NCBI GenBank assembly: GCA_947169185.1
Contig: CAMVOS010000002.1
Span: 14,080-78,079 of the forward strand
DNA from: an uncultured Prevotella sp.
Lineage (GTDB): Bacteria > Bacteroidota > Bacteroidia > Bacteroidales > Bacteroidaceae
Length of the DNA stretch: 64,000 nt
Direction of reading: 5' to 3'
Shown in pieces: positions 14,332-58,589 of the stretch; the stretch's first letter is position 1; each line of letters begins with the position of its first letter. Both the position numbers and the translations under genes were made by a program. The notes beneath the pieces are model-generated. The model saw only the letters and a list, made by a program, of their open reading frames with translations, did not search any database and was not told the origin of the DNA.

Positions 14332-14475
14332 CTAAAGTGCCATACTTTTGTCGCTATATAAGTTGAAAAAGTTGCTCAACTATACCCTCTATACCCCAAA
14401 ACCGTGTAATGCGTTTATAACTAGGAGTTTAGATTGGGGTATAGTTGCTTAAAACTATACCCCAAAGGTACCCTA

Positions 14476-14577
14476 CTATACCCTTGGCGATTCTTTCTTG
14501 AGTCGGAGGTAATAGCCCTGTATGCCGTTGGCTTTTGGCCACTTTAGTTTCTTGATGATAAGTGGCTCTTCACTCTT
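14476..14577 (-). pseudogene. Possible C-terminal remnant of a VapE/primase-helicase-type gene
   Basis: Start-less frame KSEEPLIIKKLKWPKANGIQGYYLRLKKESPRV* ends inside the left arm. Resemblance to VapE C-terminal wing motifs is from memory only. Confidence 0.35.
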
Positions 14578-14750
14578 CTAAAGTAAGCAAACGGCTGTTC
14601 TAAAGTAAGCAGACGGGGAGTACAAAGTAAGAGGAAAGAGTGCGAAACGCCTTTGTGCAGGGACTCCGAAGCCTTCTCGCAACCTTTTGCGTATACGCAA
14701 AAGACCGTGCGCGCATACGCAAAAGACCTTGCGCCTATACGCAAAAACAG
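14576..14750. repeat. Two arrays of 22-bp-period tandem repeats
   Basis: AAAGTAAG-core units start at 14576, 14598 and 14620. ATACGCAAAA occurs at 14693, 14715 and 14737. A perfect 20-bp palindrome CTTTTGCGTATACGCAAAAG lies at 14684-14703. Confidence 0.85.
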
Positions 14751-14927
14751 TCACCATGTTTTTGCATCAGGGTATAGTAGGGTATAGTTAGGGTATAGTT
14801 GCAAGCAACTATACCCTAATTTAAACGTTTGTCTTTGAATGGTTTACAACGAATCAGGGTATAGAGGGTATAGTTGAACGTTTTTTTGGTTCTATATCAA
14901 TTTGGTGGTAATTCGGATGACAAGTAG

Positions 14928-16445
14928 CTAATGCTGTACATGTTGGTGGAAGTAGTCGAAGTGAGCGATGCCGTCGTCGCCATAGCAGAACAGGCCTGTG
15001 CGGATGCCTTTCCAATAACCTGAACGCATGGGGAATGCGTCGCCGGCTTTTTTGAACCGTCGTCCGTCCGTACTGTAGTAGAACTGATGGCGATTCTCTA
15101 TGCAGTCGATTGTCATGCGTAGCCATACCTTGTCATATTTCCCCAGTTTCACGATATGTCGCTGACCATGTGCCTCAATAAAGACGCCCTCCTGACAGAG
15201 GCCGATGCCGCGAAATAACTTGCCGCTACAGAAGAGTCCCGCATAGCAATGGCCTGAGGAAGATACTAATGTGGTGCTCTCACTCTGATAGCCAACGACC
15301 TTCTGCGTGAGCTGATTACGGCATTGTTTCAGACTGTCGGCTGGCAAAGCGTGTAGCGTGAGCCATCCCTTGCGATCGTTGAGGCTCCAATGTGTATCTA
15401 CAGGGTTGTGGTTCCATTGCCATTGCAGGCCGAGGGTAGACCCGAAGTCGTCGGACAGCTGGAGGGCGAAGGGCTCTTTGCTGTTGACGGTTTTTCCGCC
15501 AGTAGCGCTGGCAAAACCAGCACTGGCAACAGGTTCGCCAATGCCGTTGCCGTCGTAGTCGATGCCTATCACGGGCCAGTCGTTCTCCCAATGGGCGGGC
15601 TGCAGATGCACCACACGTCCCAAGACGGGCGTTTCCTGGAAATGATAGAACCACCACTGGCCGTTGGGCGTGTCAACCAATGCCCCCTGATGAGGCCCGT
15701 TGACGTTGGTCGAACCCTGTTCAAGGACCACGCGCCGCTCGTACGGACCGTAGATGCTGCGTGCACGGAGAACGGTCTGCCAGCCCGTGCCGACACCTCC
15801 TTCAGGTATTATCAGATAATAGTAACCATTTCGCTTCAGGAATTTCGTGCCCTCGGCTACGGGGCCTGTATATACCGTCACGCCCTCGTCCAGCAGCTGA
15901 CGGCCATCGGGCGACATGCGGTGTACGATGATGGGGCCTGCACGATGGCGACTACGACCCAGGTAGGCTTGTCCGTCTACATCCCAGAACGGACACGGGT
16001 CCTCCCATTTCTCCACATGTTTCACGCAGTGCAACGGCGCCCAAGGACCGTGTGCGTCCTTGGCGGTCGACATGAACAGACCCTCGTCGGGCGTACAGAA
16101 ATAGACGTAGAACAGGCCGTTGTGATAGCGGATGGCCGGAGCCCACGAACCGCCGGCATAGTGCTGGTTGCTGTCCCAGCCGGGCTCGTCGAAACGATGG
16201 TATATCTGCGACGCATAGCGCCAGTTCACCAAATCTTCCGACTCAAGGACTTGCATGCCGAGAAAGTGGAAGTCGGAGGCCACCATGTAGTATCTATTCC
16301 CCACACGGATCACGTCAGGGTCGCTGAAATCGGCATTCAGCACAGGGTTACGATATGTGCCGTCGCCCTGATCGCCCCAACTGCGGGTCTGGGCATTCAA
16401 GGACAACGATAGCAGGATGAGCAGGCAGGTGAGAGCGTGTTTCAT
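14928..16445 (-). CDS. Glycoside hydrolase family 43 (beta-xylosidase/arabinofuranosidase-like), secreted
   Basis: Signal peptide; motifs NPVLNADFSDPDV, WAPAI, WEDPCPF, AEGTKF and PHQG; C-terminal beta-sandwich (LGLQWQWNHNP). Confidence 0.92.
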   Translation of the reverse strand: MKHALTCLLILLSLSLNAQTRSWGDQGDGTYRNPVLNADFSDPDVIRVGNRYYMVASDFHFLGMQVLESEDLVNWRYASQIYHRFDEPGWDSNQHYAGGSWAPAIRYHNGLFYVYFCTPDEGLFMSTAKDAHGPWAPLHCVKHVEKWEDPCPFWDVDGQAYLGRSRHRAGPIIVHRMSPDGRQLLDEGVTVYTGPVAEGTKFLKRNGYYYLIIPEGGVGTGWQTVLRARSIYGPYERRVVLEQGSTNVNGPHQGALVDTPNGQWWFYHFQETPVLGRVVHLQPAHWENDWPVIGIDYDGNGIGEPVASAGFASATGGKTVNSKEPFALQLSDDFGSTLGLQWQWNHNPVDTHWSLNDRKGWLTLHALPADSLKQCRNQLTQKVVGYQSESTTLVSSSGHCYAGLFCSGKLFRGIGLCQEGVFIEAHGQRHIVKLGKYDKVWLRMTIDCIENRHQFYYSTDGRRFKKAGDAFPMRSGYWKGIRTGLFCYGDDGIAHFDYFHQHVQH

Positions 16446-17869
16446 TGGACGTCTTCCTTTACAAAATCAGGTCTTGCATCCGCCTGTTCCGTATAGACTT
16501 CGACATTGTCGAAGTGGACCGAGCGTGCATGACGGACGTAGAAACCCTTGGCGGGCAGCGGGCCCCACATGGTAGCTTCAGGATATTCAGCGGCCTTCTC
16601 GTCACGCAAGGCCTTGTTAATATCGGACAGTTGTCGCTTCGTCACGCTTCCGTTGTGGTGAATGCTGATGTTACTGATATGTACGTCTTCCACAGGATGG
16701 TCGGGTAGTCCTGTGACGCTGCAGCCGTAGTTGCCGCAGTCTCTCGCGCGTACATTATTTATATATAGGCCACGCATTTGCCCTACAGTCTCTATGCTGT
16801 CGGGCTTCTGACTGCGTGTGGCACCTTCGTTGCCACCTTCCAGACTCTGTGCCACGAAGGCGTCGGCGCCGCTTTTGTTAAATGTCCAGCCGCGACCACG
16901 ATGGGCCAAACGCACGAAGATGGGCGACTCGGTACCGACAATCGTCATACCGTCAACGCTGACGTTTTCCATCAGTCCGCCATCTACAATCTCCAGCGAC
17001 AATGCTGAGGTGCCACGTGGACGTCCGAAGAACTGTGTGCTTTGATCCTCGCTGGGTTTTACCACAATGCCACGAATGGAGATGTTGCGGAATCCGCCAT
17101 TGGTCTCTGTGCCCAGCTTCACCGCATTACAGTGCGACGAAACAATGCAGTTCTCGATGGCAATGTCCTCGCAAAGTCGTGGTGATGTGGACTTCAGCGT
17201 GATGCCGTCATCATCAGAGTCAGCTATCACACCACGAACTATCACATCGTGACAGCCGTCCAAGTCCAGTGCATCGTTGTTGTAGTTGTTGCGATTCGTG
17301 ACCTTGATACCGTCTATTCGTACTCGGTCGCAGGCCAGATAGTGCTGCATCCAGCAACCGCTATTGCGTAGCGTAATGTCGCGTATCACGATGTCGCGAC
17401 TCTGTATGAAGCGTAACAAGTGTGGGCGCGTAATGCCCTCGTCGTTCCACGAAAGCTTGGGGAAAACGCGTCCCTGACCGTCTATCGTTCCGTATCCGTC
17501 AATGACGACGTTCTCTACTGCATCGGCATATATCAGTTGTATGGTTGGCGTATGCGTTCGCAACGACTTGTAACTCGTCGTCATCCGGCGATAGTCCTGC
17601 AAATCAGTTGAACCATAGAGCGTAGCGCCCAGTTCCAGATGCAGGTTGACATTACTGTGCAGTACGATGCTACCAATCTTATACTGGCCAGCAGGTACCA
17701 CTACGCGTCCACCACCGTTAGCTGAGCATTGGTCGATACACTGCTGCAAAACAGCAGTACATAATACCGTCGTATCGCTCTTGGCGCCAAAGTCGGTAAT
17801 GATATAATCGCGGGCTGCTACCGTCAAGCTGACGACGATAAGCAGTCCGCAAGAAAGGAGTCGTCTCAT
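16442..17869 (-). CDS. Glycoside hydrolase family 28 (polygalacturonase-like)
   Basis: Motifs ITDFGA, GTIDGQG, NNDALD, SDDDGITLKS and AVKLGTE. Confidence 0.9.
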   Translation of the reverse strand: MRRLLSCGLLIVVSLTVAARDYIITDFGAKSDTTVLCTAVLQQCIDQCSANGGGRVVVPAGQYKIGSIVLHSNVNLHLELGATLYGSTDLQDYRRMTTSYKSLRTHTPTIQLIYADAVENVVIDGYGTIDGQGRVFPKLSWNDEGITRPHLLRFIQSRDIVIRDITLRNSGCWMQHYLACDRVRIDGIKVTNRNNYNNDALDLDGCHDVIVRGVIADSDDDGITLKSTSPRLCEDIAIENCIVSSHCNAVKLGTETNGGFRNISIRGIVVKPSEDQSTQFFGRPRGTSALSLEIVDGGLMENVSVDGMTIVGTESPIFVRLAHRGRGWTFNKSGADAFVAQSLEGGNEGATRSQKPDSIETVGQMRGLYINNVRARDCGNYGCSVTGLPDHPVEDVHISNISIHHNGSVTKRQLSDINKALRDEKAAEYPEATMWGPLPAKGFYVRHARSVHFDNVEVYTEQADARPDFVKEDVQ

Positions 17870-19776
17870 CGTTTCGTTGCCTTGATAAAGTAGATAATCA
17901 ACAAGATGTATGCTACTAACGAAGCGAGTTCAGACAGCGGGTTGGCCCACCAAGCACTATAGTCGAACGACACGCCACCAAAGCGAAGCAGCGCGCTCAC
18001 GACGCCCATCAGAGCACCGCCAGCAATGAAACCAGAGGCAATGAGATTACCCTTCTCGCCACGGGCCTTGTTAACAGTCTCGTCTTTCGAACGTGTGGTG
18101 ACATACCAGTTGATAGCGCCACCGATAACCAGCGGTACGTTGAGTTCCATGGGGATGAACATACCCAGTGCAAAGGCCAATGCGGGAACTTTGCAAAGGG
18201 TTAGCACTACAGCAATGATTGCGCCAATGGCGTATAGTGCCCAAGGTGCGCCCACGCCATTCATCAGCGGATCGATGACTGCCGCCATAGCGTTGGCCTG
18301 TGGAGCAGCTAACGCGCCAGAAGCAAAACCGTAGGTCTCGTTCAACAGCATCATGACACCGCCAACAGTTGCAGCGCTGACCAGCGTACCCAGGAACTTC
18401 CAGGTCTGCTGCTTGCGGGGCTGTGTACCACACCAGTAACCAATCTTCAGGTCGGTAATGAACGAGCCCGCCATCGAGAGTGCCGTACATACCACACCGC
18501 CCATGATGAGCGCAGCAACCATACCGCCCGTGCCCTTCAGTCCTACAGCTACCATCACGACGGAAGCCAAGATGAGCGTCATCAGCGTCATACCAGAAAC
18601 GGGGTTCGAGCCCACAATGGCAATGGCGTTAGCCGCTACCGTCGTAAACAGGAAGGCGATGACTGCAGTCAGAATAATAGCTACCGCAGCAAAAAGCAGG
18701 TTGCCATCCATGACGCCAAACCAGAAGAACAGGAAGGTGAGGATGAGGGTGACTATTGAGGCGATAGCGATGAAGCGGAAGGGCAGGTCTTGACTCCCCT
18801 CGCTGCTGCTGGTTTCCCCTCCTGCCTTCGTTGCTAGTCCCACGGCGCTCTTAATGACGCCCCACGACTTGATGATACCGATAATGCCCGCCATAGCGAT
18901 GGCACCAATACCTATCGACTTACCATAAGAAGTAAAGATTTGCTCAGGCGACATATCGCCTACAGCGGTCGTGATGGCAGGGTTCCATTGGTTCAACACG
19001 GTATCGCCAAACAGCAGGGCCATGCCGGGCACTACGAGCCACCACACAAACAGTGAGCCCAGCGTGATAATCAGCGCATAGCGGAAACCGATGATATAAC
19101 CCAGCCCCAACACGGCAGCACCAGTATTGTTCTTAAACACGAGCTTGGCCTTTTCCGCTAGGTCGTCGCCATAGGGAATCATGCGCGAGGTGACGTTCTC
19201 GTTCCACCAACCGAATGTAGCCACGATGAAATCGTAGAGACCACCCACGAGGCCAGCGATGAGCAGGGGTCTGGCCTGAGAGGAGGCAGAACCACCCGAC
19301 GGAGATCCGTCGTCCTCTCCGCTCGTATCGCCACTCTTTAGCACCTGCGTCGTTGCCGTAGCCTCTGGGAAGGGGAATTGCTCCTGCGGGGCCTCGACGA
19401 AATAACGACGGAAGGGAATGAGGAACAGGATGCCCAACACGCCACCCAACAAGGAGGCGATGAAGATCTTCATGAAGTCGGCGCTCATCTCGGGGTACTT
19501 CGCCTGCAGGATATAGATGGCTGGCAGGGTAAAAATAGCGCCAGCGACCACAGCACCCGAACAGGCGCCAATGGACTGGATGATGACGTTCTCGCGCAGG
19601 GCATTGCTACGCTTGGCTGCAGCAGAAACACCAACGGCGATGATGGCAATGGGAATGGCAGCTTCAAAGACCTGTCCGACCTTCAATCCCAAATAGGCAG
19701 CAGCTGCAGAAAATAGGACTGCCATTAGGACACCCCATGTTACTGACCAAAAATTGACTTCACTTCTTTGTTTCAT
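17866..19776 (-). CDS. OPT family oligopeptide transporter
   Basis: Polytopic membrane protein with motifs FPEATAT, SNPVSGMTL, DLKIGYW and APQANAM. Confidence 0.92.
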   Translation of the reverse strand: MKQRSEVNFWSVTWGVLMAVLFSAAAAYLGLKVGQVFEAAIPIAIIAVGVSAAAKRSNALRENVIIQSIGACSGAVVAGAIFTLPAIYILQAKYPEMSADFMKIFIASLLGGVLGILFLIPFRRYFVEAPQEQFPFPEATATTQVLKSGDTSGEDDGSPSGGSASSQARPLLIAGLVGGLYDFIVATFGWWNENVTSRMIPYGDDLAEKAKLVFKNNTGAAVLGLGYIIGFRYALIITLGSLFVWWLVVPGMALLFGDTVLNQWNPAITTAVGDMSPEQIFTSYGKSIGIGAIAMAGIIGIIKSWGVIKSAVGLATKAGGETSSSEGSQDLPFRFIAIASIVTLILTFLFFWFGVMDGNLLFAAVAIILTAVIAFLFTTVAANAIAIVGSNPVSGMTLMTLILASVVMVAVGLKGTGGMVAALIMGGVVCTALSMAGSFITDLKIGYWCGTQPRKQQTWKFLGTLVSAATVGGVMMLLNETYGFASGALAAPQANAMAAVIDPLMNGVGAPWALYAIGAIIAVVLTLCKVPALAFALGMFIPMELNVPLVIGGAINWYVTTRSKDETVNKARGEKGNLIASGFIAGGALMGVVSALLRFGGVSFDYSAWWANPLSELASLVAYILLIIYFIKATKR

Positions 19777-19778
19777 AG

Positions 19779-20942
19779 TTATATTGCTTCTTTAATTCTT
19801 TCTAATGCTTTCATCAACAAACTACGAGGACAGGCGATGTTGATGCGAAGATAGCCCTCGCCACTCTTAGGCCCATACATCGTACCAGGATTCAACCAAA
19901 CATGTGCCTTTTGGAGTATCTTGTCGCAGTAGATGGCGACTGAATCGCCACAAACAGCAGACACATCAACCCACACCAGATACGTTCCCTCCAGAGGCAT
20001 CACTTTCCATTGGGGTATATGCTGTGCGACAAAATCGCATAGCGTCTGATAGTTATCCCAAAGGTAAAGGTTGAGTGCATCGATCCAGTCCTCACTCTCG
20101 TTATAGGCGGCTTTTACAGCCTCTGGGGCGAAAGGATTGACATCGCACACCTCATTGATATTAATGGCGCGGTCTAAACGACGACGTGTCTCAGTATCCT
20201 GACAGATGATATTGGCCATCTGGAGTCCTGCGATATTGAATGACTTCGAAGGGGAATTAAGAATAATCGCATCTTTGTCGACTGTTCCCATAGGCACGAA
20301 GGTGTAGCCCGGCATGATGAGTTCGCAATGGATTTCATCGGACACGATACGCACGTGGTGCTGGTGGCAGATGTCACGCATCCGTTCCAATTCCTCGCGA
20401 GTCCATACACGACCTGTAGGATTGTGAGGATTGCAAAGTAGGAATACGGTCGTTTTCTCGTCTGCACACTGAGCCTCGAAATCGTCCCAATCGGCTTCGA
20501 AACGGTTATTGCTATGGCATAACTGCAGCACGCTCTCAGCCACTTCGCAACCGTTGTTCTTGATACTGGAGAAGAAGCAGTTGTAGTCTGGCGAAAGGAT
20601 GAGAACTTTTTCGCCAGGCATAGTTAGCGCCTTGATAGCTACCGACATAGCGGGCACCACACCTATAGTATACAGCATCCACTCGCCCTGGATCGTCCAC
20701 TGGTGACGACGCTTAAACCACGAAATGACAGCGTCGTAGTAGTCGTCTTGAACGTATGTATAACCAAAGACAGGATGTGCTGCACGACGACGGATAGCCT
20801 CTTGGATAGCAGGAGCAACGGCAAAATCCATATCAGCTACCCAAAGGGGAATGACTTCTTTGCTAGGATTATCATCCCACTTCACACAGCCCGTACCTCT
20901 TCTCTCAACGATTTCGTCGAAGTTGAATTTCGTGCCTCCCAT
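19779..20942 (-). CDS. patB: MalY/PatB family PLP-dependent C-S lyase (cystathionine beta-lyase)
   Basis: Motifs LWVADMDF, LCNPHNPTGRVW, SDEIH and SPSKSFNIAGL. Confidence 0.88.
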   Translation of the reverse strand: MGGTKFNFDEIVERRGTGCVKWDDNPSKEVIPLWVADMDFAVAPAIQEAIRRRAAHPVFGYTYVQDDYYDAVISWFKRRHQWTIQGEWMLYTIGVVPAMSVAIKALTMPGEKVLILSPDYNCFFSSIKNNGCEVAESVLQLCHSNNRFEADWDDFEAQCADEKTTVFLLCNPHNPTGRVWTREELERMRDICHQHHVRIVSDEIHCELIMPGYTFVPMGTVDKDAIILNSPSKSFNIAGLQMANIICQDTETRRRLDRAININEVCDVNPFAPEAVKAAYNESEDWIDALNLYLWDNYQTLCDFVAQHIPQWKVMPLEGTYLVWVDVSAVCGDSVAIYCDKILQKAHVWLNPGTMYGPKSGEGYLRINIACPRSLLMKALERIKEAI

Positions 20943-20943
20943 C

Positions 20944-21795
20944 TTACTTCTTACCTCTTACTTCGATAATGCAATTATTCGGTTGACGCACGTTCTCATC
21001 GATAGTTATACTGCCGATGCTGTCAGCAACGATATGTCCACTGGTAGGATTCTTGATGTTTTCGATATGTCCACGAATGTCTGCCTCTACGGTAGAGTAC
21101 TCAAAGACGCGGTCGCAGGCCTTATCGAACGTACAGTTCTCGAGTACGAGATTCTGCGTATAGCACAGCAGCTGCTCACCTGCCAGATGACAATTTACCA
21201 ATCGAACATTCTTTGAGTGCCAAGCCAGATATTCACCATCCAGTTCAGAATCGTAAACTGTCACGTTCTCGCACTCCCAGAAAGAGTCCTTCGTCAGTAT
21301 CTTAGCATTGTGCACCTCGACATTCTTACAATATTGGAACACATATTTGGCATCGCTGTTTAGTCCATCAACATATATGTTCTTGCTAAACATGAAAGGA
21401 TAAGTTCCCCCATGGAGTGTGACGTTCTTCAGCTTCAAACCATTAATCTTCCAGAAAGTCTCGTCAGCATCGGTGATATTGACGTCTTCCAACTCCAAAT
21501 TATTCATCTCACGGAAGAATTTGGGGCCGTCGATGCGACAGCGACGCATGACCATATCGTTCGAGTACCAGATGGCTGAACGTGAACCAACGGCAAAATA
21601 GCAATCCTCAATCAATGCTCCGTCTACATGCCACCAAGGATATTTGCCATAGAAGCGACAATTGCTGGCCTGCATGTTCTGACACTGTTTGATGCCACTC
21701 TCACCATCTGTGATGATAATATTCTCCAACCTTAGGTCGTGGGTGGCGAAAAGTGGACGCTCACCCCCGAATTCTTTGTCTTTTATCAGTTCCAT
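20944..21795 (-). CDS. DUF3737 family beta-helix protein
   Basis: Motifs GERPLF, GKYPWWH and GEYLAWHS. This family is commonly adjacent to patB. Confidence 0.85.
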   Translation of the reverse strand: MELIKDKEFGGERPLFATHDLRLENIIITDGESGIKQCQNMQASNCRFYGKYPWWHVDGALIEDCYFAVGSRSAIWYSNDMVMRRCRIDGPKFFREMNNLELEDVNITDADETFWKINGLKLKNVTLHGGTYPFMFSKNIYVDGLNSDAKYVFQYCKNVEVHNAKILTKDSFWECENVTVYDSELDGEYLAWHSKNVRLVNCHLAGEQLLCYTQNLVLENCTFDKACDRVFEYSTVEADIRGHIENIKNPTSGHIVADSIGSITIDENVRQPNNCIIEVRGKK

Positions 21796-21819
21796 ACGTT
21801 AATAATTCATTAGTGGCTG

Positions 21820-21849
21820 CAAAGATACGAAAATTTTTTCGTACTTTTG
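21820..21849. promoter_or_regulatory. Back-to-back divergent promoters (DUF3737 operon / miaB)
   Basis: TATCTTTG at 21827-21820 (-) and TACTTTTG at 21842-21849 (+). Confidence 0.7.
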
Positions 21850-21872
21850 CACCCAAATAATAAAAAATAAGA

Positions 21873-25111: not shown

Positions 25112-25176
25112 TTGGTAATTAGCAATTGATAATTGAAAAAAAAACAGTACCTTTGTAGCCAAAAGATATCAGAAGT

Positions 25177-27012: not shown

Positions 27013-27069
27013 TATTGCAAATTATTGTCGAATAGTATAGATATAATTTTGAAAGATGATTATAAAGCA

Positions 27070-28083: not shown

Positions 28084-28091
28084 TAAATAAA

Positions 28092-30101: not shown

Positions 30102-30117
30102 TAGAAAGGACACGAAT

Positions 30118-44342: not shown

Positions 44343-44354
44343 CTCCATTAGAAG

Positions 44355-45218: not shown

Positions 45219-45229
45219 AATGGTGGCAT

Positions 45230-46105: not shown

Positions 46106-46107
46106 CT

Positions 46108-46350: not shown

Positions 46351-46353
46351 ATT

Positions 46354-49490: not shown

Positions 49491-49498
49491 TTTTATTT

Positions 49499-50437
49499 TT
49501 ATAGAATTTCTTGAATATGATACAGCGGACGGCGTTTGGCTTCGGTATAGATCTGTCCGATGTAAGTACCCATAATGCCCATTGAGATCAGAATGAAGCC
49601 ACCTACTAGATAGATGGAGAGCATCAGTGATGCCCAACCCTGTACAGCTGTGCCTACAGCAAGTGAGTAAATGACGTAGCAGCCGATGCATAATGCGATG
49701 ACGAGAAAGAGCAGCCCGATATTGAAAATGAGGTAGAGCGGTTTTACACTGAATGCTGTGATGCCGTTGAGCGCCAGTGCCAGCATTTTTTTCAGAGTGT
49801 ATTTTGACGCACCAGCTTCTCGTTCGCTAATTACATCGTCAACAGTTGTCGTCTGAAGTCCTATCTGTGGAATAAGACCACGCAGGTAGAGGTTGTGTTC
49901 CTTGTAGGTGGCCAACATTTCCAGCGAACGTTTACTCATCAGTCGGAAGTCTGCGTGGTTGTAGATACTTTCCACGCCCATCGAACTCTGTAATTTGTAA
50001 AAAGCCTGTGCTGATATACGCTTCATCATGGGATCGGCTTCACGGCTTACTTTTACGCCATAGACGATGTCGTTACCTGCTTCGAAATGCTTGACCATTT
50101 GCGGTATGCACTCTATGTCATCTTGCAAATCTGCATCAAGGGTAATAATGGCGTCAGCCCAGTCTTTGGCAGTCATCATACCTGCCATAATGGCATTTTG
50201 ATGTCCTACATTACGTGCCAGATTGATGCCTCTGACAAATTTGTTCTCTTGATGTAATTCACGAATGAGCTGCCAAGTATGATCACGGCTGCCATCGTTG
50301 ACAAAAACCATCATGCTGTCGCCCGAGATGAGTCCCTCGGCTATCATGCGTTCAAACAAGGCGGTAAGGCGATCTACAGAATGGCGCAGCACCTCTTCTT
50401 CATTGTAACAGGGAGATACGGTAGCTAACTTAATCAT
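49499..50437 (-). CDS. GtrB/ArnC-like GT2 polyprenol-phosphate glycosyltransferase
   Basis: Motifs PCYNEE, RNVGHQNA, DADLQD, DFRLMS, two C-terminal TM helices and EAKRRPLY. Confidence 0.92.
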   Translation of the reverse strand: MIKLATVSPCYNEEEVLRHSVDRLTALFERMIAEGLISGDSMMVFVNDGSRDHTWQLIRELHQENKFVRGINLARNVGHQNAIMAGMMTAKDWADAIITLDADLQDDIECIPQMVKHFEAGNDIVYGVKVSREADPMMKRISAQAFYKLQSSMGVESIYNHADFRLMSKRSLEMLATYKEHNLYLRGLIPQIGLQTTTVDDVISEREAGASKYTLKKMLALALNGITAFSVKPLYLIFNIGLLFLVIALCIGCYVIYSLAVGTAVQGWASLMLSIYLVGGFILISMGIMGTYIGQIYTEAKRRPLYHIQEIL

Positions 50438-51207
50438 GACTTGCGATTGACAAATTCTGTATAAGTAATAAACTCATGCTCTTTTTTCAACATCTTAATC
50501 AGGTTATCCAAACGTTGCATCATCTGGCGACCGCTATGATTCTTGATGATGAAGGGCATCTTGAACTCTGGGTGTTCTTTCAGGTCGAAGAACTCCCAAG
50601 GGTGGAAATAGGTGACAAAGTATCCATCCTTCTTAAGTACGCGTCGCACCATCCAATGATATACCCCCTCTGGCAGATTGTGCAAAGATAGCCAAAATAG
50701 GGGGAAACGGATAATCGGTGTGACGGAGGCGGGAATCTGCATGACCTTACCTTTCATAAACCAAGTACGTGGCTCTGTCAGGTGCATATATCGACCAGGG
50801 ATAAAGGCGGGGTTCAGAGATGAGTTGTAACGATATCCTACACGGGCTATCTCGCTGTCACTAACAGGGAACATGCGAGGTTGACGATAGCCATAGACTT
50901 GACGACCGGTAACACGCTCGACAATCTGTTTCGACACTTCGAAGTCGGTGTCCTTGGGTTGCCAGTGGTCTACACCATGACAAGCCACTTCGTGACCTTC
51001 GTCCATGATACGTTGCATCACCTTTGGCGCATGCTCGGCAAAGTTGCCCGTACAGAAGAACGTGGCCTTCACACCATTCTGCTTCAGCACATCCAGAATA
51101 CGGTTGGTACCCTCAATGCTGACCTTCATGCCATCTTCCAACGAAAAGTCAACGCCATGTTCGCGAGGAACGTCAAACTCTTCTGTGTCAAAACTCAGTA
51201 GAATCAT
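50434..51207 (-). CDS. Polysaccharide deacetylase family protein (CE4-like)
   Basis: Motifs LSFDTEEFD, ATFFCTG, HEVACHG, GYRQP and YFHPWE. Confidence 0.9.
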   Translation of the reverse strand: MILLSFDTEEFDVPREHGVDFSLEDGMKVSIEGTNRILDVLKQNGVKATFFCTGNFAEHAPKVMQRIMDEGHEVACHGVDHWQPKDTDFEVSKQIVERVTGRQVYGYRQPRMFPVSDSEIARVGYRYNSSLNPAFIPGRYMHLTEPRTWFMKGKVMQIPASVTPIIRFPLFWLSLHNLPEGVYHWMVRRVLKKDGYFVTYFHPWEFFDLKEHPEFKMPFIIKNHSGRQMMQRLDNLIKMLKKEHEFITYTEFVNRKS

Positions 51208-51229
51208 ATCATTTTTCTTAATTCGGTTG

Positions 51230-51257
51230 CAAAGTTACAAAGAAATTCGTAACTTTG
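51230..51257. promoter_or_regulatory. Back-to-back divergent promoters (deacetylase operon / GT4)
   Basis: TAACTTTG on both strands: 51237-51230 (-) and 51250-51257 (+). Confidence 0.7.
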
Positions 51258-51265
51258 CAACCAAT

Positions 51266-52396
51266 ATGACGAAAAATATCATCGGATTCGACGCGAAACG
51301 CATTGTTCGTAACGGAACAGGACTTGGAAGCTATGGGCGTACGCTGGTTAACGATTTGGCTCAGAGGCAGGATTTAGAACTGCGTCTCTATGCGCCAGAC
51401 CGAGGACGCGACGATTTGCGCTCTCAGATTGTCGAGTGTCCCAACGTCAGTTTCTGTTATCCTCATGGCGGACACCTGTATGGTTCCTTATGGCGTATGA
51501 GGAGTGTGGTAGCCGACTTGCAGCGCGATGGCGTACAACTGTATCATGGCCTTTCGGGCGAGTTACCCATCGGTATTCACCGTTCGGGCATCCGTAGTGT
51601 GGTGACCATCCACGACCTGATATTCCTCCGTCATCCGGAGTTCTACCATTGGGTGGATACCAAGATTTATGCTTGGAAGTTCCGTCAGACGCTGAAGGAG
51701 GCCGATCATGTCATTGCTATCAGCGAGTGTACCAAGCGCGACATCTTATATTATGGCGACATCGACGAGCAGAAGATATCGATAGTTTATCAGAGTTTTG
51801 CCCCTCGTTTCACTGCTGAGGTCAGCGACCAGCAGCGTTCACAGGTGAGACGGCAGTACGGATTGCCTCAACGCTATGTCCTTAATGTGGGGTCGATAGA
51901 GGCGCGCAAGAATGTGTTGCAGGCTGTTCAGGCCTTGCCGCTATTGCCTGACGACGTTGCTTTAGTCATTGTGGGTCGTCATACGCCCTATACTGACCGC
52001 GTGTTGCAGTATGCCCATGAACATCATTTGGAACAGCGCATCCGCGTGTTGCATGGCGTGCCTGACGAGCATCTGCCAGTGCTCTATGCTATGGCTGAAT
52101 CGTTTGTCTATCCGTCTGTCTACGAAGGCTTTGGCATTCCCATCATCGAGGCTATCAGTTGCGGTCTGCCCGTGGTGGCATGCTCAGGCTCTTGCTTGGA
52201 GGAGGCTGGTGGACCTGATAGCCTTTATGTCCAGCCTGGTGACGTCGAGGGTATGGCTGATGCCATCCGTCAGACATTGATTGGTGCAGATGGTAGGGAA
52301 CAGCGTATTGAAAATAGCAAAAAATACATCCGCCGTTTCAGCGGATGTAATGTAGGCGACCAGGTGGCAACGATATATCGCCAACTATTGGGTTAA
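51266..52396 (+). CDS. Glycosyltransferase family 4 (GT-B fold)
   Basis: Motifs VVTIHDL, VGSIEARKN and YEGFGIPIIEA. Start placed at MTKNIIG (51266). Confidence 0.92.
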   Translation: MTKNIIGFDAKRIVRNGTGLGSYGRTLVNDLAQRQDLELRLYAPDRGRDDLRSQIVECPNVSFCYPHGGHLYGSLWRMRSVVADLQRDGVQLYHGLSGELPIGIHRSGIRSVVTIHDLIFLRHPEFYHWVDTKIYAWKFRQTLKEADHVIAISECTKRDILYYGDIDEQKISIVYQSFAPRFTAEVSDQQRSQVRRQYGLPQRYVLNVGSIEARKNVLQAVQALPLLPDDVALVIVGRHTPYTDRVLQYAHEHHLEQRIRVLHGVPDEHLPVLYAMAESFVYPSVYEGFGIPIIEAISCGLPVVACSGSCLEEAGGPDSLYVQPGDVEGMADAIRQTLIGADGREQRIENSKKYIRRFSGCNVGDQVATIYRQLLG

Positions 52397-53121
52397 TATA
52401 ATTCGGAAGGAATGAGCTCTTTTGCTCGTTCGAAATCCTCTACTGTATCCAGTTCAATAGAGAAAAAGTTCGTAGTGTCTACCACATGGAAGTGGTGACC
52501 TTGGGGGATGAGGCGCTCGAAGGCACGTTCGTAGAAGATGTCGATGAGTCCTTCGTTCTCTATCATCTGTTCCAGCTCTTGGAATAATGCTGTCGAATAG
52601 TCGCTAGCAATACGTTCCACACCTACCGATTCGCCAATGGCGTCAGCAATACTGCATGTCTTGCTGAGTTCCACCACACGACCATCGCCATCGGTGATGA
52701 TCTTGATCTCCTCTTCACCACACTCGTGGCGGTTCAGTGCCAATGCCGTACCCTGTTGGTCGACAATGGCCTTCACCAGCTTTGGATCCAGCAGAATGTC
52801 ACTGTCCATCAGCAGGAAGTCCTTGCCATCCGTATAGGGACGTGTCATCCACAACGAGAAGATGTTGTTGTTGTGCTCATAGTCGGCATTGTGGATGAAG
52901 TGAATGGTAAGCGTAGGATAATGGTTCGCCAGAAAGTCGCGAATCATCTCACCACGATAGCCAGTCACCACTACCAATTCCGTGATGCCTGCTGCCAACT
53001 GTGCATCGACGGTACGCTCTAACAGCGTACGCTCACCCACCTTCAACAGACATTTAGGCTGTGTATCTGTCAGCGGACGCAGGCGCTTGGCCATTCCTGC
53101 AGCAAGAATTACCCCTATCAT
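52393..53121 (-). CDS. LicC-like phosphocholine/phosphonate cytidylyltransferase
   Basis: Motifs ILAAGMAKRLRPLT..PKCLL, NNIFSL, MDSD, GESVG and ELDTVED. Confidence 0.85.
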   Translation of the reverse strand: MIGVILAAGMAKRLRPLTDTQPKCLLKVGERTLLERTVDAQLAAGITELVVVTGYRGEMIRDFLANHYPTLTIHFIHNADYEHNNNIFSLWMTRPYTDGKDFLLMDSDILLDPKLVKAIVDQQGTALALNRHECGEEEIKIITDGDGRVVELSKTCSIADAIGESVGVERIASDYSTALFQELEQMIENEGLIDIFYERAFERLIPQGHHFHVVDTTNFFSIELDTVEDFERAKELIPSELY

Positions 53122-53507
53122 AGTTCCTTGTTGATTTTTGCGGCAATCTCCTTGAACTCTTCTTCGCTGAGCTTCAGTTTCTCCTTGCGGAAGTCGGCAT
53201 CGGCCTCACTCTGCATAGGAATCAGATGGATGTGTGCATGAGCCACCTCCAGACCAAGCACTACCTGAGCTACCTTCTTACAAGGGAAAGCTTTCTTGAT
53301 GGCAATGGCGACCTGCTTAGCAAACTGCTGATAACGGGCCAACTCGTCGTCAGCCATATCAAAAAAGTAGTCTACTTCGCGACGAGGAATCACCAACGTG
53401 TGACCCTTCACCAACGGATTGATATCGAGGAAAGCGTAGAACTCCTCGTTCTCTGCCACTTTATAGCTGGGAATCTCACCAGCAGCAATCTTTGCAAAAA
53501 TATCCAT
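53118..53507 (-). CDS. HIT family hydrolase
   Basis: Motifs AFLDINP, GHTLVIP and HAHIHLIP. Confidence 0.95.
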   Translation of the reverse strand: MDIFAKIAAGEIPSYKVAENEEFYAFLDINPLVKGHTLVIPRREVDYFFDMADDELARYQQFAKQVAIAIKKAFPCKKVAQVVLGLEVAHAHIHLIPMQSEADADFRKEKLKLSEEEFKEIAAKINKEL

Positions 53508-53511
53508 AATC

Positions 53512-53555
53512 CTTCTTTAACTTCTCTAACTTCTTTAACTTCTCTAACTTCTCTA
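53512..53555. repeat. 9-bp tandem repeat (CTTCTYTAA, about 5 copies) filling the greA-HIT spacer
   Basis: Seen directly: cttctttaa cttctctaa cttctttaa cttctctaa cttctcta. Confidence 0.9.
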
Positions 53556-54020
53556 CGCAATGCTGATGTTCTCGATGCGCAGCTTGATAGTACCACGTGG
53601 AATCGTAATCTCCACCTCGTCACCCACCTTTTTGCCCAGCAGTCCCTGGGCGATAGGGGTCTTGATGGAAATCTTACCAGCGCGTAGATCGGCCTCGTTC
53701 TCGCTTACGATGGTGTAGCTCATCTTGGCATTGGTGGTCAGATTGGTCATCTCAACCTTGGTCAGAATCTGGACGCTGTCCGTGCTCAGACGGGACGTAT
53801 CCACAACCTTAGCCTCGCTGATAGTAGCCTTCAGCTTGTTGATTTTATCCTCAAGATGTGCCTGGGCCTCTTTTGCGGCATCATACTCGCTGTTCTCACT
53901 CAAGTCGCCCTTCTCACGAGCCTCTGCAATGGCTGCAGATGCTTTGGGACGCTCTATCGCCTCCAGGCGATGCAGTTCGGCTATCAGTTTGTCGTAGCCT
54001 TCTTGTGACATGTAACTCAT
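53553..54020 (-). CDS. greA: Transcription elongation factor GreA
   Basis: Motifs GDLSENSEYDAAK and ISIKTPIAQGLLGKKVGD. Confidence 0.97.
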   Translation of the reverse strand: MSYMSQEGYDKLIAELHRLEAIERPKASAAIAEAREKGDLSENSEYDAAKEAQAHLEDKINKLKATISEAKVVDTSRLSTDSVQILTKVEMTNLTTNAKMSYTIVSENEADLRAGKISIKTPIAQGLLGKKVGDEVEITIPRGTIKLRIENISIA

Positions 54021-54069
54021 ATTTAAAATTTTAACATTTACAATTTACTATTTTATTCTTTAGACGCAG

Positions 54070-54145
54070 AAAAAAGAAAGAATCCCGACCTTCGTCGTCG
54101 GAATCCTATTTTTCTATCTATGTCTTTTACTCGTTTGCAAAGGTA
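54070..54145 (-). promoter_or_regulatory. greA promoter with an intrinsic terminator in the leader
   Basis: TACCTTTG at 54145-54138; hairpin GGATTCCGAC-7nt-GTCGGGATTC at 54106-54080 followed by TTTCTTTTTT, about 50 nt before the greA ATG. Confidence 0.6.
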
Positions 54146-54285
54146 GACATTTATTTTGAAACTGCCAAATTTTTCGCTTCAAAATTTCTCAATCAGATTG
54201 ATTTATGTCAAGAAAGTGTTTTGCTGACACCACTTTTTTGTGCTGATTTCTTGCACTTTACGGAAAAACCAATTACCTTTGCATC

Positions 54286-54350
54286 GTGTTTTTCATAGTA
54301 TTAGATTTAAGGTTAACAAAGGTCGGGGCTCAGCGGAGTCCCTTTTTTTT
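54286..54350 (+). ncRNA. Candidate small RNA of about 65 nt
   Basis: TACCTTTG at 54274-54281 with an upstream TTG; terminator GGGGCTC-AGCG-GAGTCCC followed by T8 at 54325-54350; no + strand ORF in between. The core TTTTCATAGTATTAGATTTAAGGTTAA looks like a conserved Bacteroidales motif (from memory). Confidence 0.6.
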
Positions 54351-55301
54351 GTGCCAAAAGGATATTAGTGCAAAGTAGAGCAGGGCACCCGTCAAGAGGC
54401 CGGCTATGGCATCGATGGCATAGTGGGCGTAGATATAGACGGTGGAGAGGCACATTAATATATAAAAAGGTAGAACGGTAAAGATGAGGCCTTTGCTTCT
54501 AGTGCGTAAGGCTAACAGCATCACGACCGTAGTAACTCCGACATGACTGCTGGGGAAGGCTGCTGTGGGACGCTCGCCAGCATCGTGCGTCAGGTCGAGC
54601 ATGTGATACCAGAAACCATCCGTCCAACCAGGTGCAGCCATTCGTTCGGAGTGTGTCAGGAACCAGTCGCCCAAGTTAGGGAAAATGCCTGCAGCAATCT
54701 TCTCTGTGCCTACGGCCAAATAGTAGAACTGCGGACCTGTGACGGGCAGCAATACGAAGACGACGTAGTAGGCAAAGAAAGACGCCAACATGGCAAAGGC
54801 TGTCATCTGGAACTCCTGATAACGCTTAAAGAAATAATAAAGGTAGGTGATGAGCATCAGTGGGAAATAGCTGACATAGCCTAAGCACATTAGTTCAGAA
54901 AACCAGCCGTATGATACCTTCTGCGAAAAGAGTAGGGATGGCTGACAACCAAAAAGCGACTGCTCCCAGCCTGCAAAGATGTGGTCGAGGTTGGGTAGGG
55001 CACGGTTCATTTCGTAGGTATCCGGATACCACCAGCCCAGGAATGCCATTTGTCCGAGAATGCGTAGGAAGATGGTGAGACGACAGGGCCACAGGCGATA
55101 GACGGCCCATAAGGCCAAGGTGACCAACACAAACTGGATGCGCCCCTTAATCATGTCTTCTGCGTTGGCCAACTTGTCCCACAGGATTATCATCATTAAT
55201 ACCGTGAATGCCAGATAGCCAAAGGCCACCCACTCGAAAGCCAACAAGCCCTTTGTGACCTTCTTCTCACGTATAAATAGATCGCCTGTCTTTAGAGCCA
55301 T
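54330..55301 (-). CDS. PAP2 superfamily membrane phosphatase/phosphotransferase (Aur1/IPC synthase-like)
   Basis: Motifs PVTGP, AAFPSSHVG and HYAIDAIAG; multiple TM helices. Confidence 0.88.
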   Translation of the reverse strand: MALKTGDLFIREKKVTKGLLAFEWVAFGYLAFTVLMMIILWDKLANAEDMIKGRIQFVLVTLALWAVYRLWPCRLTIFLRILGQMAFLGWWYPDTYEMNRALPNLDHIFAGWEQSLFGCQPSLLFSQKVSYGWFSELMCLGYVSYFPLMLITYLYYFFKRYQEFQMTAFAMLASFFAYYVVFVLLPVTGPQFYYLAVGTEKIAAGIFPNLGDWFLTHSERMAAPGWTDGFWYHMLDLTHDAGERPTAAFPSSHVGVTTVVMLLALRTRSKGLIFTVLPFYILMCLSTVYIYAHYAIDAIAGLLTGALLYFALISFWHKKKGLR

Positions 55302-56284
55302 TTGTTATCCTTATACCATTTAATACTACGGCGTACGCCTTCCTCTAATTTCACTTTCGGCTCATAGCCCAATTCTTTTTTCGCTGGTTCAATGTCACAA
55401 CGCCAATTGCGCTGACGCATGATGTTGTATTTGTCGTTGTTCAGGGCCGTCACTTTTCCCGTAATTCGTCCAACATATTCGCCTATGAATGTCACAACAC
55501 GCAGTACCCAAATAGGTGCAGTAATACGTATCCACCAGGGATTGCCCAACTCCTTGCGAATCAGGTTGCTGAAGGTCGACGACTGATACACCTCACCATC
55601 GCTGAGAAAGTAGCGGCGTCCCGTCACACCTTTTTCGCAGGCTAAGAAGACGGCCTGCACGACGTCCGTCACATAGACGAAGGTGATGTCCTGCTGCTTG
55701 TAGCCAACCGCAAAGTCGGTATGCGACTGGATGCTCTTGGCCATCATGAAATAGTCGCGCTCACGTGGACCATAAACACCCGTGGGCCTTAATATAACAT
55801 AAGGAAGTCCTTCAACAGTGTCCAACCACTTCTCGGCATCCAGCTTGCTCTGTCCGTAGGCAGTATTCGGGTGGGGCTCGTCGCTCTCACGAATCTCTTC
55901 GTAGGGCTGTTGCTCACGGATAGCGCCCATAATGCTGAGGCTGCTGATATAGACAAAACGCGTGACGCGCATCTGCAGTGCTTTCAGCACATGTACAAGG
56001 TGTTGGGTACCCTCGGTATTGATGCGGTGGAAGTCCTGCGCATCCAGACATTTCGTAACGCCAGCAGCATGCACGATATAGTCGAACTGGAGTCCTCGCA
56101 GCTGTTCTGTCAGCTGTTCTTCCGACGAGAGATTCAGCTCGATAAAGTTGATGCGCTCATCAGTCAGGAACTGACGTGAACTGCTCTTGCGTACTGCTGC
56201 CCACGTCTCGAAGCCCCGTCGGAGCGCCTCTTCTACAATAAAGGAGCCAATGAAACCACTGGCTCCTGTAATCAGTATCTTCAC
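55292..56284 (-). CDS. NAD-dependent epimerase/dehydratase (extended SDR)
   Basis: Motifs TGASGFIG, YGQSK and LRPTGVYGP. Confidence 0.92.
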   Translation of the reverse strand: MKILITGASGFIGSFIVEEALRRGFETWAAVRKSSSRQFLTDERINFIELNLSSEEQLTEQLRGLQFDYIVHAAGVTKCLDAQDFHRINTEGTQHLVHVLKALQMRVTRFVYISSLSIMGAIREQQPYEEIRESDEPHPNTAYGQSKLDAEKWLDTVEGLPYVILRPTGVYGPRERDYFMMAKSIQSHTDFAVGYKQQDITFVYVTDVVQAVFLACEKGVTGRRYFLSDGEVYQSSTFSNLIRKELGNPWWIRITAPIWVLRVVTFIGEYVGRITGKVTALNNDKYNIMRQRNWRCDIEPAKKELGYEPKVKLEEGVRRSIKWYKDNKWL

Positions 56285-57780
56285 TTCTTCTTTCCTGTTA
56301 TATTGTCTACGGCTTCGCGAGCCTCATCGTTCAGGTTGATGTTGCGGTTCACCTTAGCATCAATTGTACCTGCACGCATGATGTCAGCCATATCGACACC
56401 CGTTGCTGACTTCAGTACGTCGAACGCCTGTTTGATGGCAACGGGTACGCCGCCGCTCATCGAAGCGACACCAGCACCCGTCTCCTGACCACCGCTGTAG
56501 ACATGGACATCCTTGATAGCCGAGATGGGCTTGGCGACATTCTCTACCACCTGAGGCAATACCTCGATCATCATCTGCATCACGGCAGCATTGTTATACT
56601 TCTTGTAGGCCTCGGCCTTCTTGTCCATAGCCTGTGCCTCAGCCTCACCCTTCTTCTGAATGGCGTAAGCCTCGGCCTCACCCTTCGCCTTGATACCGGC
56701 AGCTTCCTGCTCTAAGCGGTAGCGGACAGCATCCGACTCGGCATTCTGAGCCAGTGCGCGCTGTTCGGCTTCGTACTTCTGGGCTTCAGCCACACGCTTG
56801 CGCTGTTCCAAGTCGGCAGCAGCATCCCGCTCTACCTTATACTTATCGGCATCGGCTTTCTTCTCCACCTCAGCAGCCAACTGGTTCTGGCGAATCTCAA
56901 TCTGTTCCTTCGACAGAATCTGCTCGCGCTTGGTCTTCTCAATCTCAGCCTCGACAGTCTTGATATTGATGGTCTTCTGCTGTTCCTGTTGCTGGATGGC
57001 ATAGGCTGCATCGGCATCAGCCTGGGCGGTATCGGCTTGTTGTTTCAGGGCCGCACGCTTCAGGGCCAACTCGTTGTTCTTGATGGCGATAGCTGTATCG
57101 GCATCCACGCGGGCATCGTTGGCATCCTTGTCTGCCTTCGACACCTCAATCTTCACGTCGCGCTCGGCAATGGCACGGTTGATGGAGGCATCCTTCTTAA
57201 TCTTGGCGGTATTGTCGGCACCGAGGTCCTTGATAAGGCCTTCCTTATCCGTCACGTTCTGGATGTTGCACGAAATGATTTCGATACCCAATTTTGCCAT
57301 ATCAGGCTGTGCTTTGGTCATTACTTGGTCAGAGAATCCGTCACGGTCGGTATTCAGCGAACGCAGGTCCAGCGTACCAATGATTTCACGCATGTTACCT
57401 TGCAATGAGTCCTGCAACTGTTCGGCTATCTCGTTGGGCATCATATTCAGGAAGTTCTTGGCAGCCAGACGTGTACCCTCATTATTAGGCATCACACGAA
57501 TCTTGGCGACAGCATCCACATCGACGTTGATGAAGTCGGTAGTGGGCACGCTCTCCTCCGTCTTGATATCAACGGTAATCTGACCCAAGTAGACGCGGTC
57601 CAAGCGCTCGAAGAATGGAATGCGGAAACCACCCGAGCCAATCAGTACACGCGGCTCCTTCGAAAGACCGGAGATGATAAAAGCCGATGAGGGGGGAGCC
57701 TTCACGTACGAAATAAAGAGGAATAACACCAGCAGCAAGATGCCGCCACCGATCAAAGCATACATTGTAATTGGATCCAT
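56281..57780 (-). CDS. Flotillin-like SPFH domain protein
   Basis: N-terminal TM helix, SPFH domain (LQGNMREIIG), and long Ala/Glu-rich coiled coil with AEA repeats. Confidence 0.92.
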   Translation of the reverse strand: MDPITMYALIGGGILLLVLFLFISYVKAPPSSAFIISGLSKEPRVLIGSGGFRIPFFERLDRVYLGQITVDIKTEESVPTTDFINVDVDAVAKIRVMPNNEGTRLAAKNFLNMMPNEIAEQLQDSLQGNMREIIGTLDLRSLNTDRDGFSDQVMTKAQPDMAKLGIEIISCNIQNVTDKEGLIKDLGADNTAKIKKDASINRAIAERDVKIEVSKADKDANDARVDADTAIAIKNNELALKRAALKQQADTAQADADAAYAIQQQEQQKTINIKTVEAEIEKTKREQILSKEQIEIRQNQLAAEVEKKADADKYKVERDAAADLEQRKRVAEAQKYEAEQRALAQNAESDAVRYRLEQEAAGIKAKGEAEAYAIQKKGEAEAQAMDKKAEAYKKYNNAAVMQMMIEVLPQVVENVAKPISAIKDVHVYSGGQETGAGVASMSGGVPVAIKQAFDVLKSATGVDMADIMRAGTIDAKVNRNINLNDEAREAVDNITGKKK

Positions 57781-57805
57781 AATTGAAACAGTTTAAGGGT
57801 TACTT

Positions 57806-57880
57806 TGCTGCAAGGCTCGCGCAAACTGAGCGCAATGGAGCTTGCTCCAATTGCCGAGGCGCAGCCGAGTCTCGCACGCT
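57806..57880. repeat. REP-like palindromic leader element
   Basis: Nested imperfect palindromes around GCAATGGAGC-TT-GCTCCAATTGC, with outer arms GGCTCG and CGAGTC. Confidence 0.5.
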
Positions 57881-57885
57881 TTCAC

Positions 57886-57938
57886 GTGCAAAGGTACGAA
57901 TAAGTGAGCAAAAAAACAAATAAATTTGATTTTTTTCG
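57886..57938 (-). repeat. Promoter-bearing dispersed repeat, copy 1
   Basis: Reverse complement reads approximately CGAAAAAAATCAAATTTATTTGTTTTTTTGCTCACTTATTCGTACCTTTGCAC, similar to 61596-61648. Confidence 0.7.
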
Positions 57939-58217
57939 TTCGCAACGCCATACTCATACCTTTAGGTGTGAGAACGAGAGTGCCTTCGACAATAGATCAA
58001 GGGTGGACCAAGTCAATCAATGAATAAATGAAAATAACTAAAAGTATCACTTTTTATCCTAAAATACGAAATCATAGTGACTTGTAATAGTGATGGTATG
58101 CCTAAAAGCATCACTTTTTGAGGTGATTTGATGAGATTTTCCGTAAAAGTCTTGCAAATCAGCCCAATAATTTGTATCTTTGTGGTCCGAAAGTTAACAA
58201 TACAAATCAGCAAAAAC

Positions 58218-58355
58218 ATGAAGATCACAATTATCACCTTTACTGTCTACAAGAATACGGGCATGGAGTTGGGACACAGGTTGTCTGCCATGGGTTATAA
58301 GTACCACAAGCTGAACAGCGGAGCGGCTTATAGGATGATTGAGAAGGCTCCTTAG
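58218..58355 (+). pseudogene. 45-aa ORF, possibly an internally deleted VapE/BT4734-type gene
   Basis: MKITIITFTVYKNTGMELGHRLSAMGYKYHKLNSGAAYRMIEKAP, preceded by TATCTTTG at 58175-58182. The LGxxLxxxGY...GxAY C-terminus resembles DUF3874-type tails (from memory). Confidence 0.45.
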
Positions 58356-58359
58356 ACAG

Positions 58360-58449
58360 CAAAACAAGTTGTTTTGGTATCGTAGAAGGCCTTTCTTTCA
58401 CCGTAAAGTACCATTCCTACACCACCAAAACAACTTGTTTTGGTATCGT
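58360..58449. repeat. Hairpin element with palindromic ends
   Basis: CAAAACAAGTTGTTTTGGT ... ACCAAAACAACTTGTTTTG form an inverted pair, and each end is itself palindromic. Confidence 0.75.
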
Positions 58450-58589
58450 GATGCTTAGTGACACTTTTGTTAGAAGCATCACCTTGCCTAATAAGCTAAT
58501 AATAAATAAGTTAAAGGCAAAAGTGACACTTTCATAAAAAATAGCATAAAGAAAATGGCAGTACATATTAAGTTGATCAAGAACAATAG

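Follow-up and report, generated by a model that had tools for sequence, protein, structure and literature searches.

Within a 64,000-nucleotide window of a contig from an uncultured Prevotella species (CAMVOS010000002.1, positions 14,080 to 78,079; window coordinates count from its first letter), two short elements, E1 (14355-14897) and E2 (58040-58535), each enclose a fragment of a vapE-like gene between two inverted arrays of short motifs, here called arms. On balance, we favour the reading that both are remnants of a chromosomal module in which a VapE gene stands between two inverted arrays, likely replication origins of the type found in Staphylococcus aureus pathogenicity islands (SaPIs), and that this module spread by local copying and imprecise re-entry.

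A first-pass annotation of the window had proposed that E1 and E2 share motif geometry while differing in motif sequence, and the arrays were found at the positions it claimed. E1 contains 11 copies of CTATACCC within ~520 bp, against 0.018 expected from the motif's genome-wide frequency, at 14380>, 14389>, 14437<, 14455> and 14476> in the left array and at 14770<, 14780<, 14791<, 14809>, 14857< and 14866< in the right array (arrowheads give direction); its two arms form 119-nt inverted repeats that are 76% complementary. E2 uses the motif AGYRTCACY, with copies at 58043>, 58107>, 58457<, 58475> and 58522<, and its left inverted copy, at 58089, has one mismatch to this consensus. Outer and inverted motifs lie 48 bp apart in both E1 arms, 46 bp apart in the left E2 arm and 47 bp apart in the right one, across spacers whose AT content is 65-76%. 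The inverted-to-next distance was said to be 18 bp in all four arms, which is correct as a count but depends on motif register, because an 8-mer in E1 is being compared with a 9-mer in E2: measured as the gap inside the palindrome, E1 has 10 nt and E2 has 9 nt, and from outer to next motif the distances are 66 and 64-65, respectively. The proposed order of outer, inverted and further motifs likewise describes the arms overall, except that the E2 left arm has no exact copy of a further motif and that both E1 arms have an additional tandem outer copy. When the 2.64-Mb assembly was scanned for this arrangement, blind to motif sequence, 10 sites were returned, compared to none in a block-shuffled genome; eight of them are arms and two look like chance. 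Rfam covariance models, run against five loci, gave only a chance miRNA match below its gathering score.

Full-length arm-vapE-arm parents were found for both elements, and comparison with them identifies E1 and E2, at the level of sequence, as internally deleted copies of full-length vapE modules found elsewhere, as the annotation had supposed for members of a Prevotella family; each encoded peptide corresponds to a VapE C-terminus by peptide or DNA comparison with full-length proteins. A scan of the sequence collection for E1 arms returned six loci in two Prevotella assemblies. The E1 parent (loci L040, L041 and L246, which are the same DNA) consists of an arm, a 696-aa BT4734-like/VapE gene with PF08800 and PF05272 domains, a cargo ATPase and a second arm. 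E1 matches it at 88% over 283 nt in the upstream arm and block, at 85% in the last 75 nt of the gene, and at 82% over 307 nt in the downstream arm and block. The ~2.1-kb deletion took the promoter, the start and ~670 codons, leaving the E1 frame as a remnant rather than a gene; it lacks a start codon and promoter, and E2 retains both. The cargo gene, which encodes a 401-aa AAA_14 ATPase at L041:2584-3969 between vapE and the 3' arm, has a 7-bp direct repeat on either side and is absent from E1.

The 45-aa frame of E2 had matches at E≤10 in 55 of 58 candidates, the best at E 4e-17 with 92% over 39 aa, and is up to 95% identical to 674-aa VapE proteins that start MKIT(I/V)I. The parents belong to a family that has a VapE-like ATPase and a BT4734-like N-terminal domain: protein P0001 matches PF05272 (E 3e-24) and PF08800 (E 2e-21), and the E2 parents carry both domains. 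Further independent fusions of vapE N- and C-termini occur in the protein set (P0045, P0046 and P0052-54). Contigs spanned the E1 junction in three of four public ruminant-gut runs from other studies and the E2 junction in two of four (one of the spanning runs could be the window's own source), and an assembly artefact is an unlikely source of the deletions. DNA searches of 60 genomes of random relatives returned no ortholog of E1 or E2, and the E2 arm pattern occurred in 3 of 400 genomes of the genus, always as solo arms or at contig ends.

Arms of this geometry bracket full-length vapE genes in three subfamilies, an arrangement that the annotation had put forward as a check. Among 80 metagenome loci of the E2 subfamily, a 5' arm was present in 51 of 76 and a 3' arm in 66 of 77 loci with room for one, compared to 3 of 765 shuffles; the spacing was 46-47 in 109 of 117 arms and 18 in 107 of 117. 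A fixed-motif scan of the same family detected arms in only 5/74 and 9/77, because the motif varies between loci. For the E1 subfamily (20 loci), 13 of 40 flanks exceeded a strict score that none of 120 shuffles reached, and more arms could be seen by eye; 30 loci of the DUF3874 subfamily yielded 10 upstream and 15 downstream arms against 0/295 shuffles. The second gene of the module is HU-HIG (PF18291; E 2e-17 and 3e-5), a 138-aa gene that lies downstream of vapE in 74/80 E2-subfamily loci. It flanks vapE in 14/20 E1-subfamily loci (13 upstream and one inverted downstream) and was not seen in the other six. Many vapE genes of Bacteroidaceae also have palindromic blocks with a period of ~22 bp upstream, including genes that show no 5' arm (L185, L186, L196, L210 and L133), and about half of 32 broader Bacteroidales loci have a simpler downstream array, judged by eye and unscored.

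The genome that contains the window carries two complete VapE-DUF3874 genes bracketed by arms with other motifs (contigs C2 and C9), an E1-type arm before a VapE gene cut by a contig end (C1), and gene-less miniature elements and solo arms on at least eight other contigs. Those at C4:12150-12440, C37:405-650, C33:2730, C16:29568, C23:35416, C42 and C80 include at least three motif types. At C13:53160-53305, two arms are fused at their palindromic cores, and both sides match the element at C2:9730-11320 (89%, with a 27-bp overlap). At locus L255, the only such case among the 20 E1-family loci, the arm-vapE-arm segment is flipped with respect to the HU gene. Elsewhere, in the related genome G173, arms and 22-bp repeat blocks of different subfamilies are chained into mosaics (L312, L315, L317 and L318). 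Among 40 family genomes, the number of VapE matches reached 19 in one.

The motif co-varies with the C-terminal domain of the protein encoded between the arms, as the annotation had suggested it might. In the E2 family, the last 34 residues had a partial correlation of 0.54 with the motif and the remaining residues one of -0.09; the DUF3874 subfamily repeated this at 0.60 versus -0.11 (n=15). Motifs of the 5' and 3' arms showed 0.85 mismatches, of five bases, within a locus compared to 2.60 between loci (n=33, p=2e-4). Among 64 proteins, motif bases 1-2 go with residue 645, where the recognition helix starts: M or Q accompanies AG (30/31), V or I accompanies TC (16/19), and K or R accompanies xA (12/12). 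Wing residues 658-662 track bases 4, 5 and 8, and T at residue 662 goes with T at base 8 in 14/14 cases. On a tree built from residues 1-600, 15 changes fall on the class at 645 and 16 on base 2, and a joint count of the two needs only 18 steps; column 645 ranks first of 292. The last 86 residues are predicted to form a winged helix (pLDDT 90). The top structural matches of this model are winged helices with Z 5-7.7, the closest being RFX5 (Z 7.7, rmsd 2.5, 74 aligned); the origin-binding domain of phage P4, 1KA8, is among its matches (Z 5.7, rmsd 2.8, 72 aligned). Foldseek returned no match to the C-terminal model at E≤0.001, and the model of the full-length protein was poor (pLDDT 53). The winged helix very probably binds the motif.

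Elsewhere in the protein, the Walker A and B motifs are present and Walker B is conserved, and the family profile matches SaPI1 Rep (7PDS, E 1e-18). Synonymous changes exceed non-synonymous ones ~2-4 fold in nine pairs, except in the N-terminal half of one pair, a ratio from which the full vapE genes are judged to be under purifying selection. Where primase motif I would have its acidic pair (DhD/E), none of the 97/112 E1-family and 72/77 E2-family proteins that were parsed has DxD; the E1 family has NIP, DIP or SIP and the E2 family SLE or SIE. The most fitting reading of the protein is an origin-binding helicase that has no primase of its own. Two other VapE/BT4734-like genes, at C6:16891-19456 and C4:75740-78200, have downstream repeats that are different and shorter.

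Because each arm has the layout of a SaPI origin, we infer that the arms are likely to be origins. An alternative is that they are operators through which VapE regulates its own gene and HU-HIG, the module moving by ordinary horizontal transfer only. In the E2 family the 5' arm does lie just before the vapE promoter and the 3' arm just before the HU start, and covariation shows binding, not replication. We nevertheless consider operators unlikely, as the 3' arm of the E1 and DUF3874 subfamilies precedes no module gene, and inverted repeats placed at a fixed distance round an AT-rich spacer, beside an SF3-type ATPase (helicase superfamily 3) with a conserved Walker B, reproduce the layout of the SaPI origin. 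An equally improbable account is a domesticated conflict system, in which VapE and HU-HIG hinder phages or elements with related origins, or trigger over-replication on infection. It would fit full genes that are under purifying selection with a dead primase and fast-diversifying specificity, as well as the proposal, in the available text of PMC5499826, that HU-HIG proteins counter invasive DNA. Selfish elements show purifying selection too, however, and the module's presence is patchy (41/300 and 97/250 Prevotella genomes), its debris is abundant, and its neighbours are mostly ordinary nutrient and housekeeping genes.

The sites at which modules reside bear on how they arrived. In the comparison with empty sites that the annotation had proposed, the related genome G173 is empty at the E2 site, holding 28 bp in place of 751 bp and no target duplication. 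This one site was resolved to base level, and its left junction is inexact because the missing stretch also holds an unrelated repeat. The 39 E2-subfamily loci with long flanks fall into 30 flank clusters, that is, many unrelated sites, and the sequence they share runs from at or just before the 5' outer motif to the HU stop codon, ~450 bp past the 3' arm. Parent homology similarly passes the arms of the window's own elements, to 14190 in E1 and into the first 34 nt of the HU gene in E2. A conserved unit that continues beyond the arms to the HU-HIG gene or repeat blocks makes them look more like origins than ends; of the annotation's phrase "origin-like or end-like", the first half is favoured and strict ends do not fit. 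No integrase, transposase, relaxase or phage protein was found among 85 flanking proteins from 22 of the 80 E2-subfamily loci, which were picked by flank length with nine near-duplicates dropped.

These observations also weigh on the idea that the arms are transposon-like ends, and E1 and E2 MITEs (miniature transposable elements with inverted repeats) moved by a transposase or recombinase encoded elsewhere. The arms are inverted, miniature elements and solo arms are numerous (at least nine E2-type 3' arms in G173), the core palindrome resembles a recombination site, and the C13 junction is a core-to-core fusion. We regard the idea as quite improbable: the empty E2 site has no target duplication, the conserved unit stops at the HU stop rather than at the arm, and the motifs follow the winged helix of the helicase. 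Least probable are decaying prophage or satellite replication cassettes with no activity of their own, since homologues of VapE do occur in true phages, at 24-26% identity, but none of the 85 flanking proteins is a phage protein or integrase, five scans of viral contigs found no close relative or arm, and intact, selected genes occupy 30 unrelated sites. Residence of relatives in phages or plasmids was also considered and rejected: the best "phage" matches are unverified, unannotated scaffolds, and the "plasmid" matches that were opened carry ordinary chromosomal genes where annotated.

Our favoured reading, a VapE module with two origins, can be set out as follows. The arrays would be bound by the C-terminal winged helix of their own VapE. 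Hexamers would then probably load at both flanks of the AT-rich spacer and open its strands, the primers being provided in trans. A more tentative proposal is that firing of two origins over-replicates the module and that microhomology joining, to which the HU-HIG protein may contribute, captures the loose copies. Local copying and imprecise capture would fit the two inverted putative origins, the lack of a recombinase gene nearby, ragged junctions with short microhomologies, the L255 inversion and the C13 fusion. Recombination between arms would yield the debris: inversions such as L255, palindromic-core fusions such as C13, solo arms and miniature elements. As E1 and E2 retain both arms, a cognate VapE acting in trans could copy them, or they may simply be dead.

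Several observations weigh against this reading, and the copying-and-capture step is its least supported part. The catalytic primase aspartates are missing in all parsed members and the Walker A motif of the E1 family is atypical (GEQGY[LM]KT), so that the module is not a self-sufficient replicon. Fold Z-scores under 8 could reflect a generic winged helix. Residue-level covariation may be inflated because the winged-helix codons and the 3' arm adjoin and may recombine as a block; the 5' arm, 2 kb away, usually agrees with the motif, and in several loci its outer copy lags. Few of 58 other Bacteroidales loci show the strict geometry (8 upstream and 4 downstream hits), and several of these hits are 22-bp repeat blocks and not arms. 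A full-length E2-type gene was not found in this 75%-complete assembly. The E1 5' arm is present at the orthologous site in L039, from a species ~87% identical, so that this insertion is old. The proposed re-insertion route is inferred from an absent recombinase and an absent duplication at one site, and no excised or amplified form was seen in assembled contigs. Depth over E1 in one run was 30-34, equal to its flanks, although depth of assembled contigs is no measure of copy number.

Features of E1 and E2 in the window (strand given where assigned)
Feature	Position	Strand	Remarks
E1 accessory palindromic-repeat block, outside 3' arm	14190..14354		common to parent; also dispersed alone, 6 places in genome
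E1 3' arm (downstream of minus-strand vapE)	14377..14484		two outer CTATACCC, 40-bp AT-rich spacer, inverted pair, one further copy
Last 23 codons of BT4734-like/VapE gene (wing of predicted winged helix)	14489..14557	-	85% DNA identity to L041 parent; 22/24 residues identical to P0001
E1 upstream block, 22-bp period repeats	14558..14768	-	joined near 14557/14558 to 3' end of gene
E1 5' arm	14769..14876		two outer copies, 40-bp AT-rich spacer, inverted pair, two further copies; also at L039 orthologous site
E2 5' arm	58041..58118	+	outer AGTATCACT, 37-bp AT-rich spacer, inverted copy (1 mismatch), next copy
E2 kept vapE upstream region	58145..58217	+	TAnnTTTG box at 58175-58182
E2 45-aa in-frame fusion	58218..58358	+	first 6 and last 39 residues of 674-aa BT4734-like/VapE protein; recognition helix and wing kept
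E2 accessory block	58357..58449		two palindromic CAAAACAAGTTGTTTTG-type copies
E2 3' arm	58447..58532	-	outer copy 58522, 38-bp AT-rich spacer, inverted pair 58475/58457, one further copy (1 mismatch)
HU-HIG gene stub, first 11 codons of 138-aa gene	58555..58588	+	element end against host DNA

The TAnnTTTG box kept upstream of the E2 frame corresponds to the Bacteroidota -7 promoter consensus. A listed 118-aa open reading frame at 58555-58911 is chimeric, joining the HU stub to antisense sequence of the neighbouring gene, and is probably no real gene. Abutting E2, positions 57800-57990 hold a separate high-copy intergenic repeat that occurs at 31 places in the genome and on very many rumen-run contigs. 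Around E1, ~12 kb of the window (2640-14586) is missing from the orthologous xerD-GH43 locus of L039, including genes for a 3405-aa protein with LamG-like domains and a fimbrillin-like protein, the E1 3' arm and the vapE remnant; that locus retains only the E1 5' arm and the upstream block. A second, 73%-identical copy of the xerD surroundings lies at G000 C50:851-4530 and is possibly bin contamination.

These results give the unexplained VapE/BT4734-like genes of Bacteroidota likely cognate DNA sites and a specific, putative residue-to-base code (645 and 658-662), tie HU-HIG to a defined module, and explain a set of dispersed intergenic repeats as module debris. Spread without a recombinase, if true, would be an undescribed route of mobility. 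It is possible, although we think it doubtful, that Bacteroidota harbour a whole class of recombinase-free mobile elements, in which a helicase-initiator with two mirror origins copies its own locus and microhomology joining captures the copies. Were this so, it would explain why VapE/BT4734-like and HU-HIG genes have expanded and where much of Prevotella's short intergenic repeat debris comes from, and nature would have supplied a library of orthogonal initiator-origin pairs whose residue-to-base code can be read; such pairs could serve the genetics of Prevotella and Bacteroides. The literature searched, comprising main texts without supplements and lying mostly outside subscription journals, holds no description of these arms.

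Among known systems, the alpha protein of phage P4 requires two sites, ori1 and crr, and repeat-bearing regions lie on either side of the initiator gene. The Prevotella module resembles it in its predicted RFX-type winged helix (1KA8, Z 5.7) and in having two repeat regions that flank the initiator. P4 differs in being a satellite that carries an integrase, in its active primase and in having two sites that are unlike each other, whereas the Prevotella module has mirror-copy sites and no satellite genes. Prokaryotic MITEs are likewise short, dispersed, bounded by inverted arms, and gene-less or with gene remnants. Unlike those derived from insertion sequences, however, the elements studied here lack terminal inverted repeats at exact ends, homology running past the arms; no target-site duplication was present at the one empty site examined; no transposase was found near modules among the 85 flanking proteins, with no genome-wide transposase search made; and the arms follow the helicase.

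The BT4734-like (VirE-N) primase family, with its VirE and DUF3874 domains, shares PF08800, PF05272 and, in the short subfamily, PF12990 with the module's protein; the available portions of PMC11724360 and PMC5862659 on this family describe no flanking arms. The arm-bearing clade has lost the motif I aspartates, which the two other BT4734-like proteins of the same genome keep. For the HU-HIG clade of Bacteroidetes, the part of PMC5499826 available reports almost no conserved gene linkage; for the subfamilies studied here, the adjacency of HU-HIG to vapE contradicts that account. The closest parallel is the Rep (PriRep) protein and iteron origin of SaPIs and other phage-inducible chromosomal islands (PICIs). 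SaPI Rep, as described in the available text of PMC9371898, binds opposed iterons round an AT-rich region just downstream of its gene by means of a winged helix. Both systems have a homologous VapE-type ATPase of the SF3 type, a C-terminal winged helix (predicted in the Prevotella protein), and opposed, element-specific short repeats round an AT-rich spacer right after the gene, with the E2 arms having one outer copy rather than two. The Prevotella module differs from SaPIs in that two inverted putative origins bracket the gene, the primase lacks its aspartates, HU-HIG is linked, chromosomal sites are many, and miniature and solo-arm derivatives exist; none of the hallmarks of PICIs and satellites (integrase, att sites, and regulatory and packaging-interference genes) appeared among the 85 flanking proteins, and the sites are unrelated to one another. 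By the features tested, the module is neither a PICI nor a MITE, and it likely works like SaPI Rep and its origin.

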